Shown here: one piece after another, positions 49,945 through 64,000 of the stretch | Position numbering within the stretch: the first letter of the stretch is position 1 | How the letters are laid out: every line of letters begins with the position of its first letter | Assembly (NCBI GenBank): GCA_041648975.1 | Contig: JBAZNZ010000009.1 | Location: 1,033 to 65,032 of the forward strand | Origin: Candidatus Omnitrophota bacterium | Lineage (GTDB): Bacteria; Omnitrophota; Gorgyraeia; 2-01-FULL-45-10 | DNA: 64,000 bases | Direction: 5' to 3' | Notes under the pieces: generated by a model | The model's database searches: none | What the model saw: the letters and a program-made list of their open reading frames with translations, nothing else | What the model was told of the DNA's origin: nothing | Translations under genes and position numbers: made by a program

Positions 49945-50622
49945 TTGAAAGTCGATCCTATGTTTAAACCGGCGCTAACGATCGCTCTTATCGCATTGTC
50001 GGCGTATTTCGCGTGCGAAGGCCATGCTAAGGCCGTAGCCGAACATATATATATCGTCCCTGTCGGGGACGCGGACAGCAAAGTCGTAGCCGAGATTAAG
50101 GACAAACTTCCCTCATTCCTTTCCATGAGTTCAAATACGCTGGTGGACCCCGGGAAGGATCTGCCCGAGTCCGCTTACGATTCCTCGAGAAAGCAGTATA
50201 ACGCCCGGGTCCTTTTAAAAGAGATCTCGCGGCGCGTGACCGTCGATACCGCGAATGAAAGGGTGCTCCTTATTACGGACGTAGACCTGTATATGCCGGA
50301 GACGGACTTCGTCTTCGGGCTCGCCGACGCGAAAAGAGGGATCTGCGTAATATCTTCGGCCCGTCTTAAGGACGAATTCTACGGCCTGAAACCGAATAAA
50401 AGAGCATATTATAACAGGGCCCTGAAAGAGGCAGCGCATGAACTTGGCCATTCCTGGGACCTCGGGCATTGCACGAACCCGAAATGTGTAATGTGCCTTT
50501 CAAATACTCTTGCCGACATCGATAAACAGAGAGATGAGTTTTGCCATGCCTGCCGGGATAAACTGCGCCTCAGGTATGAAAAGGCATTGGTCGATACGAA
50601 GGCGTTAATGCAGAGGTGGTGA
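49945..50622 (+). CDS. archaemetzincin-like zinc metalloprotease (M54 family) with N-terminal signal-like segment
   Basis: HELGHSWDLGHCTNPKCVMC...CHAC matches the HExxHxxGxxHCx4CxM...CxxC archaemetzincin signature; N-terminal hydrophobic stretch ALTIALIALSAYFAC. Confidence 0.65.
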   Translation: MKVDPMFKPALTIALIALSAYFACEGHAKAVAEHIYIVPVGDADSKVVAEIKDKLPSFLSMSSNTLVDPGKDLPESAYDSSRKQYNARVLLKEISRRVTVDTANERVLLITDVDLYMPETDFVFGLADAKRGICVISSARLKDEFYGLKPNKRAYYNRALKEAAHELGHSWDLGHCTNPKCVMCLSNTLADIDKQRDEFCHACRDKLRLRYEKALVDTKALMQRW

Positions 50623-53238: not shown

Positions 53239-53820
53239 ATGATTAAAAGAGACGCGGAACTCTACGCGCATAAGATAAATAATTTTTATATGAAGAACAG
53301 GAGGATGCCGTCTTACTCCGAGATGCAGTCCATCTTCGGGTTCGCCTCGAAGAACGCGGTATTTAAAAGAGTCCAGGCGCTTATGAAGAACGGATTTATC
53401 GATAAAGACGCTAAGGGCCGCCTCATCCCGAGAAGCCTTGTCAAGCCCGCGCGCCTTTTAGGAACCGTAGCCGCCGGGTTCCCGAGCCCCGCGGAGGAGG
53501 AGCTCGCGGACACGATGAGCCTTGACGAGTACCTGATATCGAATCCCCAGGCCACTTACCTGTTGAAGGTGGACGGCGACTCTATGATCGACGCCGGCGT
53601 GCATCCGGGAGATCTGGTCCTGGTCCAGAGGAACCTGACTCCGAAAACAGGGGATATAGTCGTGGCGCATGTAGATAATGAATGGACGTTAAAATATTTT
53701 GAAAAAAAAGGCGGCCGGGTCGTTTTGAAAGCGGCCAATAAGAAATATCCTGTAATAACGCCTAAACAGGAACTTACGATAGCCGGAGTGGTCATAGCCA
53801 ATGTCAGGAAATACAGATAA
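53239..53820 (+). CDS. lexA: LexA repressor
   Basis: N-terminal winged HTH plus a C-terminal S24 peptidase domain (VDGDSMIDAGVHPGDLVLV, GDIVVAHVDNEWTLK); 193 aa. Confidence 0.9.
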   Translation: MIKRDAELYAHKINNFYMKNRRMPSYSEMQSIFGFASKNAVFKRVQALMKNGFIDKDAKGRLIPRSLVKPARLLGTVAAGFPSPAEEELADTMSLDEYLISNPQATYLLKVDGDSMIDAGVHPGDLVLVQRNLTPKTGDIVVAHVDNEWTLKYFEKKGGRVVLKAANKKYPVITPKQELTIAGVVIANVRKYR

Positions 53821-55129
53821 GGCGGAAGAATTCTTTACTCTCCACTCATATCCCAAAGCCATAGCCCATATAGATTGCGACGCCTTCTTTGCTTCATGTG
53901 AAGAGGCGCGCGACCCGTCTCTCCGCGGGAGGCCTGTCGTTACAGGCAAAGAGCGGGGAATAATAGCGTGCGCGAATTACAAGGCCAAGGCCCTGGGGAT
54001 AAAACGGGGGGTGAGTCTGCGCGACGCTAAGCTCTTATGCCCGGAGCTCGTGATATTGCCCGGCGACTACGAGATGTATAGCGTATATTCCGAAAGGATG
54101 TTCGAGATAATAAGGCGTTTTACGCCAACCGTGGAAGAATTTTCCATAGACGAAGCGTTCTGCGACCTGACGGGCTTGAGGCGGCTATACAGAACGTCAT
54201 ATCAGGAGATAGCCCTGCGGATAAAGGACGCCATACATAAAGAGCTCGATATAACGGTTTCCGTAGGTCTTAGTCTCACTAAGACTCTCGCCAAGATATG
54301 CTCCAGGCATAAGAAGCCGGATGGCTTTACGCCAGCGCCCGGCTGCGAGCTCCACAGCTTCCTTAAGGGCATACCGCTGGACCGTGTCTGCGGATTCGGG
54401 CCGAACACGGTCAGTCTCCTTAATAAATGCGGTATATGCGATGTCTTTGGTTACGCGGAAAAATCGTTCGATTTCGCGGACAGGCTGCTCGGCAAGGTCG
54501 GCCGCGAGCTCTGGCAGGAACTGCGCGGCATACAGGTATACGGCATATCGGCAGAGAAGAAGGAGAAGTATCTCTCCATAAGCAAGACGAAGACTTTCAG
54601 CCCCGCCTCAAGCGACAGAGCCCTTGTAAAGGCGCACCTCATGCGCAACCTCGAATCCGCGTTCATAAAATTGAGACGGCATAAGTTGAGCGCCAAGGCG
54701 CTGTCGATATATCTGAGGACGAGGGATTTTAAAGGTATGGGCTTAAGCGGCGAGCTCGACAGGCATTCGTTTTCGACGCTCGATTTTACCCAGTTGTGCG
54801 GCCGCATGTTCGACAAGGTCTTTGAGGAAGGGGTCGTTTATAGAGCCACAGGAGTTGTTCTGTCAGATATAGTCCTTGAGGGCGCAGACTCGATGACGCT
54901 CTTTGACGATCCTGTTAAGATAGCCAGGATATCGGGCCTATCGAAAGCTGTCGACGAAATAAACGGGCAATACGGAAAATACGCCGTTCATCTCGCGTCT
55001 TCCGATCAGGCGCTCTCTGTAAAACGTCCGCATTCACGGAACGATACCGCGTGGCGCAAGACAACGCTCCTAAAAGGCGAGACATTCCGCCGCAGGCTCA
55101 GGCTCCCTCTTCTGAAAACGGCTGTGTGA
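53801..55129 (+). CDS. Y-family DNA polymerase (DinB/UmuC-like, catalytic residues present)
   Basis: IAHIDCDAFFASCE and SIDEAFCDLTG catalytic motifs; 20-nt overlap with the lexA 3' end; 442 aa. Confidence 0.8.
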   Translation: MSGNTDKAEEFFTLHSYPKAIAHIDCDAFFASCEEARDPSLRGRPVVTGKERGIIACANYKAKALGIKRGVSLRDAKLLCPELVILPGDYEMYSVYSERMFEIIRRFTPTVEEFSIDEAFCDLTGLRRLYRTSYQEIALRIKDAIHKELDITVSVGLSLTKTLAKICSRHKKPDGFTPAPGCELHSFLKGIPLDRVCGFGPNTVSLLNKCGICDVFGYAEKSFDFADRLLGKVGRELWQELRGIQVYGISAEKKEKYLSISKTKTFSPASSDRALVKAHLMRNLESAFIKLRRHKLSAKALSIYLRTRDFKGMGLSGELDRHSFSTLDFTQLCGRMFDKVFEEGVVYRATGVVLSDIVLEGADSMTLFDDPVKIARISGLSKAVDEINGQYGKYAVHLASSDQALSVKRPHSRNDTAWRKTTLLKGETFRRRLRLPLLKTAV

Positions 55130-55193
55130 CCCGCGCACATTTTGCTTTAGATTTGCGCTTTTAAGAGGTATAATCCTTGCCAGGAGGTGTAGC

Positions 55194-56045
55194 ATGAAAA
55201 AGACTATGATATGTGCGGCTGTTTTTCTATTGGCCGTTGCAACGGTCTTGACAAACAAAGCGTATTGCGAAACCCCCGAAGATTATTACAAGTCAGGAGT
55301 AGAGTTGTATGATCATAACAGGTTCGGAGACGCCCTGACAGAGTTCGAAAAGGCCATAAAACAGGATCCGGGCTATGCCCCCGCTTACTTTAAGACGGGA
55401 TGCGTATATGTGATACTGAACCGGTTCCAGGAGGCGGTCGACTATTTTAAGAAGGCGATCGAATTAAATCCGGGTTTTTCGGCCGCGTACCAGGCCATGG
55501 GCGAGGCATACTATTCCATGGGAAACAGGGAACTCGCGATTGCGTCGTTTGAAAAAGCAATAAGCATAAATCCCGGATTTTTCATACCTTACAACAGCCT
55601 TGCCGACATCTACGTATCCGATAATAAGCTAGACCAGGCAGTGCCATTCCTGGAAAAGGCCCTGCAGATAAATCCGTACGATTATTATGCTAACTACAAA
55701 TTAGGGAAGATATATCTGAAGCTGGCAAAGTATCAGGACGCGATAAAATATTTCCAGAGGACGTCGCAGATAAACCTGAGATTTGCCGGCGCGTACTTCG
55801 ACACCGGTGTCGCCTATAATATGCTGAACGATGCCCAGCAGGCTCTCCTGTATTTCCGCGAAGCGCTTAACCAGGATCCCAGCTACGCCGACGCGTATTA
55901 TGAGGCCGGTGTTGCGCATAATAAACTCGGGCAGTTCAAAGAGGCCAGGGAGAACCTGATAAAGGCGGAAGATTTGTATAAATTAAAAGAAGACCAGATC
56001 GGCGCCCGAAAGGCAAAAGAAGCTTTGAGTAAAATAAGCCGATAG
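55194..56045 (+). CDS. secreted TPR-repeat protein
   Basis: Signal peptide followed by about seven TPR units. Confidence 0.7.
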   Translation: MKKTMICAAVFLLAVATVLTNKAYCETPEDYYKSGVELYDHNRFGDALTEFEKAIKQDPGYAPAYFKTGCVYVILNRFQEAVDYFKKAIELNPGFSAAYQAMGEAYYSMGNRELAIASFEKAISINPGFFIPYNSLADIYVSDNKLDQAVPFLEKALQINPYDYYANYKLGKIYLKLAKYQDAIKYFQRTSQINLRFAGAYFDTGVAYNMLNDAQQALLYFREALNQDPSYADAYYEAGVAHNKLGQFKEARENLIKAEDLYKLKEDQIGARKAKEALSKISR

Positions 56046-56057
56046 GAGAAGCTATCT

Positions 56058-56450
56058 ATGGTCAGGAAAAGAGTTTTAATCGTCGATGATGAAGTAGATT
56101 TTATTGAAATATTAAAAGTGAGGCTTGAATCGAATAATTGCGAGGTCATAACGGCCAATAACGGGAAAGAGGCGCTCGAAAGGATAAAGAAAGACAAGCC
56201 CAACGCGGTGCTCCTGGACATAATGATGCCCGAACTCGACGGCCTGACCGTGCTGAAGCGGATACGCCAGACGGACGCTACGCTTCCGGTATTCTTCATT
56301 ACAGCGTTCTCTAATGAGGAGAGGATAAAGATAGCGGGCGGACTTAACGCGTCCGGGTATATCGTCAAAACGCAAGACCTGGGCGTGAAAGTGAAGGAGA
56401 TAGTCGATTTCATAGACATTGCCGAAAAAGCAAAGGGCAAAAGTGCCTAA
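56058..56450 (+). CDS. single-domain response regulator (CheY-like receiver)
   Basis: Receiver domain with the phospho-acceptor Asp region VLLDIMMPELDG; no output domain. Confidence 0.8.
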   Translation: MVRKRVLIVDDEVDFIEILKVRLESNNCEVITANNGKEALERIKKDKPNAVLLDIMMPELDGLTVLKRIRQTDATLPVFFITAFSNEERIKIAGGLNASGYIVKTQDLGVKVKEIVDFIDIAEKAKGKSA

Positions 56451-57294
56451 AATTTTTCGTGTAAACAGCAAAAAGTTTATACTTGTCCTATTACTGGCGG
56501 CTTTTCCTTTATACGCCCATGCCCGCGAGGAAGCCGGCACGGACCAGCTGATACGCCGGATGACCCCGCCTCGCGCAGTCGTGGAAGATCTAGTGGAGGC
56601 GAAGGATCAGTGGTATGTTGACTGTTTCTTTGAGCCGAGTGAGGTATTGCAGGGCAACAGGACAGGCAACTGGGATGAACTTACCACCAGTATCGCGTAT
56701 ATCCACCAAAATATCCGTCCTTATCTGTCAGTATCGCAATTAGAGAGATTCGATAATAAGGACTATACCGCGAACATAGGCTCCTACCTTAGTTTTAAAG
56801 ACTCCTACGCGCATTTAGAAGGGGGTTTCGGCTGGGATATCGACTATATCTATAAATTCATATCTATCGCGGAATACGGCCACAAGCTTTACGAGAATCT
56901 TCACTGGCAGATGGGCTACACCTACCGCGCCTACGGCACAGACGATACTCATCTCGTATATCCTATGCTTATCTACTATTTCGGCGACAGCTACATGAGC
57001 GCGCAATACGGCGTGTCGTTCATGGAGGGCCACGATACGGCTAATATGGGCTCCGTCAGAGGCGATTTCGCAATAACAAATTTTTTGCGATGGTCGTGCG
57101 GTTTAGCGGTCGGTGAGAGGCTCTATGACATAAACGGTTTTGACGCCCACGCCGAACGGGGATTTATACTCTTTACCGGGATTACGTGGAATCTCTATAA
57201 AGACATAAATATAAAGGCCGGCTATTCCCATGGTGAGGAAGCCCCCAAGTTCATAAAACGGGGGTACTATCTCTCCGCGTCGGTAAAAATGTAG
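56443..57294 (+). CDS. putative outer-membrane beta-barrel protein (YaiO/porin-like), start uncertain (TTG 56419 or GTG 56443)
   Basis: Signal peptide KKFILVLLLAAFPLYAHA; alternating aromatic/hydrophilic beta-strand pattern throughout; no ATG before the signal peptide. Confidence 0.45.
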   Translation: MPKIFRVNSKKFILVLLLAAFPLYAHAREEAGTDQLIRRMTPPRAVVEDLVEAKDQWYVDCFFEPSEVLQGNRTGNWDELTTSIAYIHQNIRPYLSVSQLERFDNKDYTANIGSYLSFKDSYAHLEGGFGWDIDYIYKFISIAEYGHKLYENLHWQMGYTYRAYGTDDTHLVYPMLIYYFGDSYMSAQYGVSFMEGHDTANMGSVRGDFAITNFLRWSCGLAVGERLYDINGFDAHAERGFILFTGITWNLYKDINIKAGYSHGEEAPKFIKRGYYLSASVKM

Positions 57295-57295
57295 A

Positions 57296-58561
57296 ATGTA
57301 CGGTTACCATGCCGACATAGTCTGGATGGTCAACGCCGCGCTCTTGATCGTACTTATCATTACGGGCGTGGTGATATTCTTTTGCGTCCTTATAAAAAGC
57401 CGCATCCAGGGCGCCCGGCGTTCCAGGCTTCTCGGAATAAAAAAGAATGTCTATGAAACCGTCATGTCGGGTAAAGGTGTGTCCGAAGGCGCTCCCTCTT
57501 CCGTATGTCCCATCAATGTCACCCCGGAACAATTTATAGATGTAGAGACTAATAGAGCGCGCTACGCCGCTTTTTTTAATGAAGCCGAGATAGCCTTCCT
57601 TAAGAAATGTTTCGTGAGTCCCGGACAGACAGCGAAGCTTGAAAAGCGCGCTAAAAGTTCATGGAACAAATGGCAAAGAGTGGAAGCTATTCTTTGTCTC
57701 GGCTATTCTCAAGCCCCTTCCGCTGTAGATATACTCGCGAAATTGGTTTCGAGTAAGGACGAGGACATATCCTATTATTCGATCGTGGCCTTAGGTCAGA
57801 TAAAGACAGTCCATTCAGCCAAGGTTCTTATGGATCATCTGCGCAAGGACCCCTCAAGCGGTTATAAGATAGCTCTGGTCTTTGACGGCTTTCCGGACGA
57901 GGCTTCCGATAACATCATACAACTGACGAATGACCCGCGCGAAGACGTTAAGCGTTGGGCGCTTGTCCTTCTGTCGAAGTTTCCTGTGGGAGGATACGTC
58001 AAGAAGCTCGAAACCCTTACTCATGAAGCCGCGCCGGAAGTAAGGGCGGCCGCGTGCGATTGCCTTGGTAAAGCCCTCCGAAGAGAGGCAAAACCGGCGA
58101 TATTAAGATGCCTTAAGGACGACAGCTGGCTGGTCAAGAGGCATGCGATAATGGCGCTTGAGAAGCTTATGGGCGATGACGCGCTTCCCGAAATAACAGG
58201 TTTTGTCGATGATGCTTCGTGGTCGGTCAGCGGCGCTGTGGCGGAAGTTATGGCATCCCACATAGAAGCCGCGCTTCCTTACCTCGCAAAATTTCTGGTA
58301 AGCGACAATGTAGTCGCGAAGAGGTTCGCGGCATTAGCATTAGAGGATTCCGGATACCTGACGAAGTTATTGAAGGACGTCATAAGCGGCAAGGCGAATG
58401 CCAAAGCCTCGGGCGTCTTAGAAGGAATTGTGAGGTCGGGTTTCCATTCCGGCCTTGAGGCGGCGATCGCCCCGCTTGAAGGGCCGGAGCGGGCCAAAGC
58501 CATCAAAGTCCTTTCGGGGATAGACGGCAAGACCGCCCAAAATTTACATAAGGCGCCTTAA
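57296..58561 (+). CDS. membrane-anchored HEAT/PBS-lyase-like repeat protein
   Basis: One N-terminal transmembrane helix, then repeated HEAT-like units (VRAAACDCLGKA.., VKRHAIMALEKL..). Confidence 0.55.
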   Translation: MYGYHADIVWMVNAALLIVLIITGVVIFFCVLIKSRIQGARRSRLLGIKKNVYETVMSGKGVSEGAPSSVCPINVTPEQFIDVETNRARYAAFFNEAEIAFLKKCFVSPGQTAKLEKRAKSSWNKWQRVEAILCLGYSQAPSAVDILAKLVSSKDEDISYYSIVALGQIKTVHSAKVLMDHLRKDPSSGYKIALVFDGFPDEASDNIIQLTNDPREDVKRWALVLLSKFPVGGYVKKLETLTHEAAPEVRAAACDCLGKALRREAKPAILRCLKDDSWLVKRHAIMALEKLMGDDALPEITGFVDDASWSVSGAVAEVMASHIEAALPYLAKFLVSDNVVAKRFAALALEDSGYLTKLLKDVISGKANAKASGVLEGIVRSGFHSGLEAAIAPLEGPERAKAIKVLSGIDGKTAQNLHKAP

Positions 58562-58562
58562 T

Positions 58563-59966
58563 ATGCTCACACCTAAAATAGTATATGCGGTATTTGTCGC
58601 CTGCCTGGGGTACTTCCTGTTCCTGACTATATATTATGCGTTCCTTGCCCTTATAGGGTCTTATGAGGGCAGGAAGAGATCTTTGCAGGGCGAAGAAGAA
58701 GATTATTCGCTCGTCTATTTTTCGAATTTCAATATCCCGGTGAGTTTTATAGTCCCCGCCCGTAACGAAGAAGAGTGGATAGCCGAATCGATAAAGTCGC
58801 TCTTGAACCTCAATTATCCGAAATTTGAGATAATAGTTGTGAACGACGGGTCTACGGATAAGACGATGGATATCCTGGATTCTTTACTGAAGCTAAGGCC
58901 CAGCGACATAATGTATATAAAACATTACAAAGACGGCATGCTGCGCAGGATATTGAAGAGCGAACTGCATCCGAACATCACCGTTATAGACAAAGAGGCA
59001 GGGACCAAAAAAGCCGGCGCCGCGAATGCCGGGCTTAACATAGCGAAATATAATCATGTATGCGTTGTAGATGCCGATACAATCTTTGAGCCCGACGCGA
59101 TTTTAAGAATCATGGCGCATGTCGCTAAGGATCCCGATAAGATAATCGGGATAGGGAGTTACTTCGGGCTATTAAACGGCTTCAAGATAAAAGAAGGCAG
59201 GATAATGGAGCATAGCCCAACATACAATCCGATAGTGGCTTCTCAGAATGTCGAATACATACGTTCCTTTATGGGCAACAGGCTGGCCTGGAGCAGGTTT
59301 AACGCTATGCCCAATGTCGCCGGCGGCTTCGGGGTATGGCGCAAAGACGTTCTATATGAGCTCGGCGGATATTCGGTCGACTTTACATGCGAGGACATTG
59401 AGTTTACGTTCCGCGCGCATGACTACGTCGTCAAGCATAAGGATAAGGGATACAGGATACTCATGATGCCGTATTGCGTCGGGTGGACGGAAGGGCCCGC
59501 AAATGTGACGTCTCTCATTTCCCAGCGCGAGCGATGGCAGAGGGTGACCGACGAAACGGTCTGGAGATATAAATACATGATGTTCAATCCGAGATTCGGA
59601 GGCTTTGGGTTCCTCGTATTTCCTTATTTTGTTCTGTATGAAGTCTTAGGCGTCTTCGTTGAAGTGGTAAGTGTGGCGTTCGTGGCCGCGGGCTGGGCGG
59701 CAGGCGTTCTGCAGTGGAATGTTTTTCTGGCGTTCTTCTCGTTCATGCTCCTTTCTCAGGCGTTCACCTCGCTGTTAGCTATCCTGACTTTCACGGAAGA
59801 GCAGAGGCTCTTCCGGTTAAGGTATATTATGTATCTTGTAATTCTGACGTTTACTGAATTTTTCTGGTACAGATGGATAATATCTATAGCGAAATTGGTC
59901 GGAACTTTTCGGTTCCTGTTCAGGATAAAATCATTTGACCGGTATGTGCGGTCGAAACATGTTTAA
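58563..59966 (+). CDS. processive family-2 glycosyltransferase (PgaC/BcsA/Alg8-like synthase)
   Basis: Two N-terminal transmembrane helices, GT-A domain with D..D motifs, the Q(R)xRW motif (ISQRERWQRV), and four C-terminal transmembrane helices. Confidence 0.75.
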   Translation: MLTPKIVYAVFVACLGYFLFLTIYYAFLALIGSYEGRKRSLQGEEEDYSLVYFSNFNIPVSFIVPARNEEEWIAESIKSLLNLNYPKFEIIVVNDGSTDKTMDILDSLLKLRPSDIMYIKHYKDGMLRRILKSELHPNITVIDKEAGTKKAGAANAGLNIAKYNHVCVVDADTIFEPDAILRIMAHVAKDPDKIIGIGSYFGLLNGFKIKEGRIMEHSPTYNPIVASQNVEYIRSFMGNRLAWSRFNAMPNVAGGFGVWRKDVLYELGGYSVDFTCEDIEFTFRAHDYVVKHKDKGYRILMMPYCVGWTEGPANVTSLISQRERWQRVTDETVWRYKYMMFNPRFGGFGFLVFPYFVLYEVLGVFVEVVSVAFVAAGWAAGVLQWNVFLAFFSFMLLSQAFTSLLAILTFTEEQRLFRLRYIMYLVILTFTEFFWYRWIISIAKLVGTFRFLFRIKSFDRYVRSKHV

Positions 59967-59977
59967 GGGGGTATAGG

Positions 59978-62303
59978 TTGGCCAGGATCTATCTCATATT
60001 TTTCCTTTCAGGCATAAGCGGACTTATATATGAAGTTGTTTGGCTGAGGATGCTTACCAGGGTGCTGGGCTGCACTGTATACGCGACCTCGATAATCCTC
60101 GCGGCTTTTATGGCGGGCCTTGCCATAGGAAGCTACCTGATCGGCAAGTACGGCGGCAAGGTGAAGGACCAGATGCGCCTTTACGCTACGCTGGAAGCCG
60201 GCATAGGTATCTCGGCGATGGCCCTGACATTTTTGCTTAATCTGCTCGTACCCGTTTACAAGGCCGTCTATTCGATGGCGGGCGGCCAAAGGCTTGGGCT
60301 GACTATCTTCCAATCAATAACGATGTTCCTGATATTCCTTATACCGACCATCTTGATGGGAGGGACGCTTCCCATAATCAGTTCTTATACGAGAAGATGC
60401 GAGAAGGCCCTGGCCAAAAGGCTGGGATATCTGTACGGGTTGAATACGTTCGGCGCGGTCGCCGGCGTATTGGCCGCCGGTTTTTACCTGATAGGTTCTT
60501 CGGGAGAGACACGGACATTGTTGATAGGCGCCTTAATAAACCTGGCCGTCGCTTTAACGGCTTTCGCGATAGCCCGGAACGACGATCTATCCGGAGGCGC
60601 GGCGCGATGCGCGCAGGAAGGGGCGTCTCCGGCGTCTTCATCTCCGTCCCTGCCTGATCATAGCGTCGGCGTAAGAAAATTAGTCCTCGCGGCATATTGC
60701 CTCAACGGTTTTATCATGATGGCTTATGAGGTCATCTGGACGCGTATCTTCCAGATCCAGGTGGGGACTTCCATATACGCGTTCAGTCTTATGCTTGCTT
60801 TCTATCTCCTGGGAATAGCCCTGGGCAGCGTCGCCGGAGGCAGGTTTGCGAACAGGATAAATAACCCGTTGGCCGTATTCGGCATATCCCAATTATTTAT
60901 TTCAACATACGCCGTATCGGGATTATATATATTTACGGTTTTTAGCGCGTCGTTCTCATGGTCTGAGATCATCCCGGCGAATGTGCTGCTGATGCCTCAA
61001 CTGATCATAGTGCCCATTACTTTTATATCCGGTTTTATCTTCCCGGTGATATCCCGCATCTATATTAAGGATGAAGCGGGCGTCAGCAGGGTGGTGGGCC
61101 TGCTCTATTCCATGAACACTCTGGGATGCATATTAGGTTCTCTGATATGCGGTTTCGCGCTCGTAGGGTCGCTAGGAACGCGAAATACGATACTGCTCTT
61201 ATCGGCTCTCGGCGCCTTTGCCGGAGTGACGGTCTATTTTAAAGCGTCATCCGGGATCAGGGGGCTGAAAATGAAGATTGCCATTGCAGGGTTATTGTCC
61301 GGAGCGCTCATTCTGGGCGCCATGTCGCCGGATCCGTTCATGACGGCAGTGCATGAACGGATGAAAATCTTCCTGCGGGGGCCTTCCGATGAAGCTACGC
61401 TCCTCTATCACAAAGAGGCCGCGCGCGCGACCACGACGGTCTTCAGTTATAAGCACGGCCCTTTATCAAAACAATTATTGATAAACGGGGTCGGGATGAC
61501 AAAATTATGCATAGAGACGAAACTGATGGCTCATCTCCCTATACTGCTTGCCCGTGATCCGGAAGATGTCCTCGTGATATGTTTCGGCATGGGGACGGCG
61601 CTCAGGTCGGCCTGGGCGCATAAGACGCTTAAATGCGACGTGGTCGAACTGGTAGAGGAAGAGTATGAATGCTTTAAATATTTTCACGCCGACGGTCCGC
61701 GGATCCTGGCGGATCCCAGGGTCCGTCATTTTACCGATGATGGGCGCAACTTCCTGCTCATGCGGGACAAGAAATACGATGTCATTACGCTGGACCCGTC
61801 GCCGCCGCTTTACAGCGCAGGGAGCGTAAATCTTTACAGCAAAGAATTTTTCGAACTTTGCAGAAGCCGCCTCAAGGAAGAAGGTATCATGTGCCTCTGG
61901 ATACCGCCTGACAGCGCCACAGAGGTCAGGATGATCATGAAGACCTTCTACACGGTCTTTCCGAATACTTATGTGTGCGGAGGGCCGTACTACGGCGGAT
62001 TTTTTATGCTTGGATTTATGAGCGAAAGCCGGCCCGACGTCAGCCGCCTTATCCGCGACGAAAAAGAAAAGGATGTAGTCGATGACCTGAATGAATGGGA
62101 TACATCGGACAAACCGTCGATGTCCCGTCTCCTGGTGCTGAAACCCCCGGAACTGGCGAAATTTGTCGAAGGCGCGCCGGTCATTACAGACGACCGCCCG
62201 TATACGGAATTTTTCTTATGGAGGGCATTATTTGACAAATTCTATAAGTACCAGCTCAACGCGAAATCTCTTGTTGACTGGAGGGACGATAGGTTGAAAG
62301 GCC

Positions 62304-62314
<11 letters not shown>
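59978..62314 (+). CDS. polytopic membrane protein fused to a spermidine-synthase-like (PABS) methyltransferase-fold domain
   Basis: About 12 N-terminal transmembrane helices, then a PABS-like domain (VLVICFGMGTA, DVITLDPSPP). Confidence 0.65.

Positions 62315-64000
<1,686 letters not shown>

Follow-up and report, generated by a model that had tools for sequence, protein, structure and literature searches.

Does a string of genes that sets a membrane-embedded family 2 glycosyltransferase (GT2) beside a putative outer-membrane barrel encode a machine for polysaccharide synthesis and export, and if so, is that machine one of those already described? The question is raised by positions 55194–59966 of a 64,000-nucleotide stretch of DNA (the window, a term used here for the whole stretch that was analysed) from an uncultured Candidatus Omnitrophota bacterium. 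Contigs of the metagenome-assembled genome (MAG) GCA_028715235.1 and of two metagenome assemblies carry these genes too. An initial annotation, made from the letters of the window alone, had read them as an exopolysaccharide (EPS) secretion locus in which a tetratricopeptide repeat (TPR) protein and a porin are encoded separately, accompanied by a HEAT-repeat membrane protein and gated by phospho-relay through a CheY-like receiver. Our analysis leans towards a synthase-dependent machine for making and exporting a polysaccharide, in a variant not described before and distinct from the Pga, Bcs, Alg, Pel and Nfr systems, and draws on gene-order conservation together with the motifs, folds and predicted topology of the gene products.

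Gene content of the locus

The five open reading frames (ORFs) called in the initial annotation were all confirmed on the forward strand, with unchanged coordinates:

55194–56045 (+), TPR protein, 283 residues (Pfam TPR_1)
56058–56450 (+), stand-alone CheY-like receiver, 130 residues (PF00072)
56443–57294 (+), YaiO-family barrel, 283 residues (TIGR04390, PF19413, AlphaFold2 model)
57296–58561 (+), HEAT-repeat single-pass membrane protein, 421 residues (HEAT_2, AlphaFold2 model)
58563–59966 (+), GT2 synthase, 467 residues (Glycos_transf_2, motifs)

Domains were called with Pfam and NCBIfam models and their curated cut-offs, and the calls lie far above chance, which bears out the description of five co-directional, tightly spaced or overlapping genes. 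The spacing between them is, in order, 12, −8 (or −32), 1 and 1 nt; the first of the two values for the receiver and the barrel belongs to the GTG start at 56443 that is used in public gene calls (283 residues) and the second to an alternative TTG at 56419. A plausible ribosome-binding site precedes each of the five genes. The domain models found no PilZ, GGDEF, EAL, MshEN or polysaccharide-deacetylase domain in these genes or in the sixth gene that follows them.

Conservation of the cluster in relatives

About 85 related loci were assembled, 80 of them from a one-genome-per-species scan and the remainder by look-up of close homologues, and every ORF in them was compared with the proteins of the window to count neighbourhoods. 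The HEAT gene lies immediately upstream of the GT2 gene in all 45 non-actinomycete loci with enough sequence and in 35/35 evaluable loci of a second group (L048–L083), which consists of Actinomycetota (mostly Gaiellaceae, with GT2s about 40% identical) except for one Acidobacteriota MAG (L079). In Omnitrophota, Elusimicrobia, Lentisphaerae and Actinomycetota alike, the two genes usually overlap or stand a few nucleotides apart. Judged by this gene order, the HEAT protein and the GT2 are the deep core of the system.

Of the 40 non-actinomycete loci that could be evaluated, 39 have the barrel gene immediately upstream of the HEAT gene. In the remaining one, L006 from Omnitrophota (positions 2–2970), a receiver gene is followed directly by the HEAT–GT2 pair, with no barrel gene between. 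No barrel was found in any of the Actinomycetota loci, as would be expected of organisms that lack an outer membrane, if these do, and L079 gave only a weak barrel-like match (E 1e-5). The receiver gene precedes the barrel gene directly in 27 of the 38 loci that could be evaluated, most of them labelled Omnitrophota. Of the five genes in the initial annotation, those for the barrel, HEAT protein and GT2 form a conserved block in relatives.

The GT2 synthase

The GT2 matches Glycos_transf_2 at E 3e-28 and carries the motifs D95, D170-A-D172, C276-E-D278 and Q321-R-E-R-W325, whose positions are invariant across 15 homologues (58–72% identical). One hydrophobic segment lies N-terminal of its GT-A domain and several lie C-terminal of it; the latter give hydropathy peaks within residues 347–410, and residues 419–450 are hydrophobic by eye as well. 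Because basic residues follow the N-terminal hydrophobic segment, the catalytic domain is predicted to be placed in the cytoplasm.

A search of the PDB with the GT2 returned the Chlorella virus hyaluronan synthase (HAS) over profile positions 59–390 (E about 8e-8), the sole solved membrane synthase whose match runs through the catalytic domain as far as the first membrane segment on its C-terminal side. All other matches to solved structures are confined to the nucleotide-binding N-terminal part, roughly the first 50–60 residues of the GT-A domain; GtrB (5ekp) and DPMS (5mlz), for example, match only at about residues 50–117. Scored with the GT2 family profile, the E. coli synthases reached 66.5 bits (PgaC), 48 (YaiP), 16 (BcsA) and 4.1 (NfrB), and the PgaC alignment extends into the C-terminal transmembrane (TM) region. 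The best NCBIfam match is TIGR03937 (PgaC_IcaA), with an E-value of 9e-29 and 100.6 bits against a cut-off of 422.3, and the NodC model matches at 3e-7. Since the GT2 matches both PgaC and HAS but misses the PgaC cut-off, it is best placed in a PgaC/HAS/NodC-like branch of processive GT2s and not with PgaC itself; some of its homologues carry the JGI name PgaC. Identity among the best 120 matches is 58–72%, and those with an organism name are mostly from Omnitrophota.

With its invariant motifs, its flanking TM segments and its alignments to HAS and PgaC, the GT2 bears the hallmarks of a processive membrane-embedded synthase, and processivity is predicted, in agreement with the initial annotation, which had pointed to a QxxRW motif flanked by TM helices. 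Non-processive enzymes were looked at as well: GtrB-, DPMS- and ArnC-type proteins match only the start of the glycosyltransferase domain, and assignment to this polyprenyl-phosphate type was rejected because the matches are partial and QRERW is present.

The HEAT-repeat partner

The protein encoded directly upstream of the synthase matches HEAT_2 at E 5e-29. Its AlphaFold2 model (predicted local distance difference test, pLDDT, 88) shows a long helix (residues 6–57), a short disordered linker and an alpha-solenoid (residues 77–418), and the single N-terminal TM helix agrees with its description as a single-pass membrane protein. No Lys or Arg residue precedes the TM segment and five follow it in an Arg/Lys-rich juxtamembrane stretch; the same layout recurs in HEAT homologues from Elusimicrobia, Lentisphaerae and Actinomycetota (e.g. 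...VVVGRLRYERRRR). As this charge pattern is kept across phyla, the solenoid is predicted to be cytoplasmic. We would expect it to be tethered beside the catalytic domain of the GT2, and a role of the HEAT domain as a periplasmic scaffold is not supported. A fold search of the PDB with the model returned designed or generic alpha-solenoids and importins only, which gives no functional lead.

The YaiO-family barrel

Both family models assign the barrel to YaiO (TIGR04390, 39.9 bits against a cut-off of 32; PF19413, 29.3 bits against 23.9), and its NCBI name is YaiO family outer membrane beta-barrel protein. An AlphaFold2 model built with 35 homologues (mean pLDDT 85) begins with a signal-peptide helix, after which residues 56–282 form 14 antiparallel strands. 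The beta-barrel candidate of the initial annotation is thereby upheld; it passes the YaiO cut-offs and is confidently predicted as an outer-membrane-type barrel of 14 strands. In Foldseek searches with the model, OmpG was best by TM-score (0.6–0.67, target-normalised) and FadL by E-value, with FadL/TodX also at the top; no EPS porin was among the first 50 matches. Searches of the PDB with the single sequence and with the barrel profile gave nothing meaningful. A profile comparison with E. coli YaiO was not significant, so that the relation to this protein runs via the family models. The C-terminus of the window barrel (57282–57294) reads ...SVKM, and the family consensus ends in a nearly invariant aromatic F; an aromatic C-terminal residue is typical of the outer-membrane insertion signal.

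At E <= 1e-3, the barrel family comprises 99 representative clusters among 1.8 billion proteins, most of them stand-alone proteins of 250–295 residues. Seven longer relatives (414–1199 residues) were tested, and 7/7 combine N-terminal TPR repeats with a C-terminal YaiO barrel (P0359, 1191 residues; P0396, 1199 residues; P0374; P0381; P0394; P0404; P0405). By analogy, the layout of these fusions is that of PgaA, BcsC and NfrA. A C-terminal motif, YSHGEE.P.FI, is common to the window barrel and one of two aligned fusions. A metagenome scan with the two-fusion alignment was discarded; its patterns came from the TPR region and retrieved generic TPR proteins only, with a YaiO barrel in 0/53 loci. 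In the literature searched, yaiO appears only as a PCR marker.

The receiver and its regulatory partners

The receiver matches PF00072 (Response_reg) at E 4e-27, and 30 orthologues all keep its residues D10, D11, D54, T82 and K104. After T82 these orthologues share a family-specific stretch, TAFSNEER, on the face that receivers commonly use for target contact. The domain search found no output domain, neither DNA-binding nor GGDEF. A receiver without a DNA-binding domain most likely acts by binding another protein, and the HEAT protein or the synthase would be the nearest candidates.

The initial annotation had proposed a search for the cognate histidine kinase. None is encoded in the 64-kb window, and the kinase must therefore be encoded elsewhere in the genome; among relatives, histidine kinases lie within the flanks of 17 loci and directly upstream of the receiver in four (L025, L046, L047 and L085). 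In four loci that have no receiver, a GGDEF gene stands directly after the GT2 gene (L030, 1474–2706; L037, 9457–10362; L039, 9396–11237; L040, 9461–10357). The absence of GGDEF, PilZ and deacetylase modules, on which the initial annotation had built, is thus true of the window and does not extend, where GGDEF is concerned, to these relatives. Such a distribution fits post-translational control of the synthase with an input that is swapped between lineages, and it suggests a two-component receiver as the input in Omnitrophota and a diguanylate cyclase in some Lentisphaerae-like lineages. Control by the receiver is backed by its conservation, its intact phospho-sites and the kinases of relatives. 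Direct phospho-gating, the stronger claim of the initial annotation, is plausible, though we hold it to be somewhat less than probable.

In about 25 loci, a gene for an NAD-dependent short-chain dehydrogenase/reductase (SDR) lies directly upstream of the barrel gene or, in Omnitrophota, is fused to a second receiver as a protein of ~465 residues (L019, 4005–5408; L033, 6212–7606; L089, 4122–5498; and about 10 other Omnitrophota loci). The fusion implies direct phospho-control of what would be a precursor-forming enzyme; we know of no described example of a receiver fused to a UXS-like sugar-nucleotide enzyme. Among named structural relatives of the SDR, human UDP-glucuronate decarboxylase ranks first (E 1e-51 and 1e-48), and each of the 22 full-length copies has the motif ST[SA]E[VI]YG, which we take to resemble the UXS/ArnA decarboxylase signature. 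The SDR passes no curated model, and we tentatively regard it as a UXS-like (UDP-glucuronate decarboxylase-like) enzyme. Its frequency in relatives suggests that the polymer is not plain poly-beta-1,6-N-acetylglucosamine (PNAG) and may contain a pentose.

Some genomes carry the genes twice. The full set of kinase, receiver, SDR, barrel, HEAT and GT2 genes is present in two copies in the Omnitrophota MAG JBAZIT01 (L019 and L027), and two HEAT–GT2 pairs occur in Actinomycetota, both on contig CAWKLR010000024.1 (L056 and L059) and within one further MAG (L073 and L074).

Neighbouring genes

The TPR protein gives E 4e-40 with TPR_1 and matches many other TPR models; its NCBIfam matches are generic TPR models only, all below cut-off. 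Residues 1–25 are hydrophobic and would act as a signal or an anchor, so that the protein is predicted to be directed to the periplasm. The gene is absent in the nearest relative, L088 (GT2 72% identical, same sample), where the cluster is flanked by a gene of the saccharopine-dehydrogenase family upstream and by bacA downstream. Among about 48 other non-actinomycete loci, only 4 have TPR genes close to the cluster, which is no more than background because a further TPR gene occurs within the window at a distance of 40 kb. On both grounds the TPR gene was rejected as a core member; it appears to be a lineage-specific neighbour whose membership in the system is uncertain. The initial annotation had made the separate TPR and porin modules a defining feature of the system, and this does not hold in relatives. 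A split arrangement like that of AlgK and AlgE consequently rests on one genome and on the distant TPR–barrel fusions.

The initial annotation listed the five genes correctly and overlooked a sixth on the same strand. This gene and a promoter-like site upstream of the string are:

59978–62314 (+), fused major facilitator superfamily (MFS)/spermidine synthase, 778 residues (NF037959, Spermine_synth)
55146–55174 (+), promoter-like site TTTAGA-17-TATAAT, 10/12 matches, within the 64-nt gap before the TPR gene

The MFS/spermidine-synthase gene (NF037959, 131 bits against a cut-off of 40; Spermine_synth, 4e-16) begins 11 nt downstream of the GT2 gene with a TTG start and its own ribosome-binding site. 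Of all the loci, only L001 and L002, both from this organism, have it beside the cluster; co-transcription is probable here, and the gene is not a conserved member. Its presence, together with the saccharopine-dehydrogenase-family gene of L088, may hint at a polyamine theme. The promoter-like site, which is followed by a strong ribosome-binding site (AGGAGG) before the TPR gene, may mark the start of the transcription unit and is suggestive by position only; promoter and terminator counts in the region are not above shuffled expectation. Scanned against Rfam, the whole window yielded two tRNAs as the only matches and no riboswitch.

On the reverse strand, cstA (carbon-starvation protein CstA; 62304–63935) converges on the MFS/spermidine-synthase gene with an 11-nt overlap and closes the forward gene string. 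Directly upstream of the cluster, a gene for a LexA-like S24 peptidase (53239–53820, +) overlaps by 20 nt with one for a Y-family DNA polymerase (53801–55129, +; IMS, IMS_C), by appearance an SOS-type mutagenesis pair. A few kilobases upstream lies a gene for an archaemetzincin-like peptidase (49945–50622, +; Peptidase_M54 by Pfam, via the identical gene in L001).

A working model and its alternatives

Taken together, we infer a machine in which the PgaC/HAS-type GT2 would polymerise a cytoplasmic nucleotide sugar and thread the chain through the inner membrane. Its apparently obligate partner would be the single-pass membrane protein, with the HEAT solenoid in the cytoplasm by the catalytic domain, and the 14-strand YaiO barrel would provide the exit across the outer membrane in those bacteria that have one. 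In Omnitrophota, output would be controlled by the receiver, phosphorylated by an often co-encoded histidine kinase and most likely bound to the HEAT protein or the synthase. The UXS-like enzyme of relatives, often fused to a receiver, would supply the donor, pointing to a polymer that contains a pentose or a non-housekeeping sugar, and the TPR and MFS/spermidine-synthase genes would be additions specific to the organism of the window. Relative to the initial annotation, the synthase, the barrel and the receiver are retained; the part given to the TPR protein and the placing of the HEAT domain were wrong or unsupported, and the SDR and GGDEF partners had not been seen. A bolder version, in which the phosphorylated receiver docks on the HEAT protein or the GT2 and so directly turns the synthase on or off, a second receiver fused to the UXS-like enzyme gates the pentose donor in parallel, and a product that possibly contains xylose leaves through the YaiO porin, is possible and rather doubtful. 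If true, two-component phosphorylation would for the first time be seen to gate a processive glycan synthase directly, and the YaiO family, including the orphan E. coli yaiSPXO locus, would gain a function.

Several points weigh against synthesis and export by such a machine. The whole case is built from sequence and gene order. QxxRW-type GT2s also include NodC, the maker of short oligosaccharides, and no conserved periplasmic component was found to link both membranes. The barrel has no detectable sequence relation to PgaA, AlgE, BcsC or NfrA, its 14 strands make it smaller than the EPS porins known to us (16–18 strands), and YaiO proteins have no demonstrated function in the literature searched. 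With no other receiver, no histidine kinase and no SDR gene in the 64 kb, the kinase and SDR parts of the model come from relatives. The target of the receiver is a guess, and c-di-GMP (cyclic di-GMP) might be bound by the HEAT protein or the GT2.

Some of these points would fit a GT2 whose product stays bound to the cell, be it a short oligosaccharide, a glycolipid, a periplasmic glucan or an envelope polymer, with a barrel that is unrelated or only loosely linked. The 58–72% identity among the best 120 GT2 matches suggests a housekeeping role in the envelope and not a facultative biofilm matrix, and the NodC match (3e-7), the missing periplasmic scaffold and the BacA gene downstream in L088 point the same way. 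We nevertheless consider a cell-bound product unlikely, because the barrel stands immediately upstream of the HEAT gene in 39/40 evaluable non-actinomycete loci and is absent from the Actinomycetota loci, its relatives are fused to TPR repeats like known EPS porins, and GtrB-, DPMS- and ArnC-type enzymes match only the first ~60 residues of the glycosyltransferase domain. A divergent Pga/Ica/Hms-type PNAG system would explain why PgaC_IcaA is the best NCBIfam match, why JGI names some homologues PgaC and why PgaC is the closest E. coli synthase; the TIGR03937 score of 100.6 bits where 422.3 are needed, the lack of a PgaB-type deacetylase, PgaD and PgaA beside a barrel of YaiO type, and a UXS-like SDR in relatives that would be superfluous for a polymer of UDP-N-acetylglucosamine make it quite improbable.

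The mode of control may also be questioned, with c-di-GMP or transcription as the real input and the receiver as an indirect or unrelated neighbour. PgaCD binds c-di-GMP without a recognisable domain and the HEAT protein or GT2 could do likewise; GGDEF genes stand beside the GT2 in the four receiver-less loci, and Omnitrophota loci are generally rich in receivers. Against this, which we give a small chance, stand the fixed position of the receiver in 27/38 loci, its TAFSNEER surface and intact phospho-sites, its lack of a DNA-binding or GGDEF output domain, the receivers fused to the SDR enzyme of the pathway and the adjacent histidine kinases. That five genes are adjacent by chance and form no system draws on the TPR and MFS/spermidine-synthase genes, which are not conserved neighbours; it is extremely improbable and already contradicted for the four core genes, whose receiver–barrel–HEAT–GT2 order recurs in dozens of loci from several samples and phyla with differing flanks and which overlap or lie 1 nt apart. 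The undescribed synthesis and export variant accordingly remains the reading that we prefer.

Comparison with known systems

Public records annotate all parts of the locus generically, and the literature searched holds no description of the cluster, of a HEAT partner for a GT2 synthase or of a YaiO function. Among the nearest known systems is Pga/Ica/Hms, where a small GT2 (~440–470 residues) with an N-terminal TM segment, QxxRW and C-terminal TM segments is likewise combined with a membrane partner (PgaD there) and a barrel exit in the outer membrane. Here, a HEAT protein of 421 residues stands in for PgaD, a deacetylase is missing, and PgaA, with its TPR repeats and 16 strands, is replaced by a YaiO barrel that stands alone and has 14 strands; control is apparently by a receiver and not by c-di-GMP. 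By domain models, PgaB-type deacetylase, PgaD and PgaA domains are absent from the cluster, and in a search of nine sequences the barrel and HEAT profiles gave no match to PgaA and PgaD (E 0.57 and 0.006). NfrA/NfrB/YbcH is, by annotation, a similarly minimal synthase-dependent system with one GT2 and one TPR–barrel protein of the outer membrane; NfrB has 745 residues and is annotated as c-di-GMP-activated, whereas the window GT2, at 467 residues, stops behind its TM segments, and the profile of the window barrel produced no reportable match with NfrA. Filing the locus as Pga, Nfr or Bcs was rejected on these differences and on the family cut-off.

AlgK/AlgE and PelB/BcsC share the concept of a TPR scaffold with a barrel, and the window gene string does include a separate secreted TPR gene; here, however, that gene is not conserved with the cluster, and the 14-strand barrel has no detectable sequence relation to theirs. 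Unlike synthases controlled through PilZ, PgaCD, PelD or MshEN, the window genes show no recognisable c-di-GMP receptor. HAS of class I resembles the GT2 weakly and is the only solved membrane synthase matched beyond the catalytic domain; it works without a partner protein, and no porin is dedicated to it. In the has operon, enzymes that form the sugar-nucleotide precursors are encoded beside the synthase, as is the UXS-like SDR in relatives of the locus.

The sole other context of a YaiO barrel that was examined is yaiS-yaiP-yaiX-yaiO of E. coli K-12 (L084, 380069–384616), which likewise pairs a YaiO-family barrel, in this case the type member and last gene of the row, with a membrane GT2. 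YaiP carries the motifs DAD, VED and RWRRW and is only 26% identical to the window GT2; it is accompanied by a PIG-L deacetylase (YaiS) and an acyltransferase (YaiX, disrupted by IS2), and there is neither a HEAT protein nor a receiver. The E. coli genes look like an uncharacterised, partly decayed polysaccharide locus.

To our knowledge, the known synthase-dependent systems (cellulose, alginate, Pel, PNAG and Nfr) are all controlled by c-di-GMP and use large TPR-linked porins. The Omnitrophota locus would differ from them in three parts, namely the HEAT partner, which is kept in the barrel-less Actinomycetota loci, the small YaiO barrel, and a receiver where other lineages have a diguanylate cyclase. 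This reading, if borne out, would enlarge the set of machines that build biofilms and capsules by a new family, provide the first functional context for the YaiO family and E. coli yaiSPXO, and indicate that c-di-GMP and two-component signalling can replace each other as inputs to glycan synthases. It would also speak for a surface polymer in Omnitrophota, which are uncultured and possibly host-dependent.

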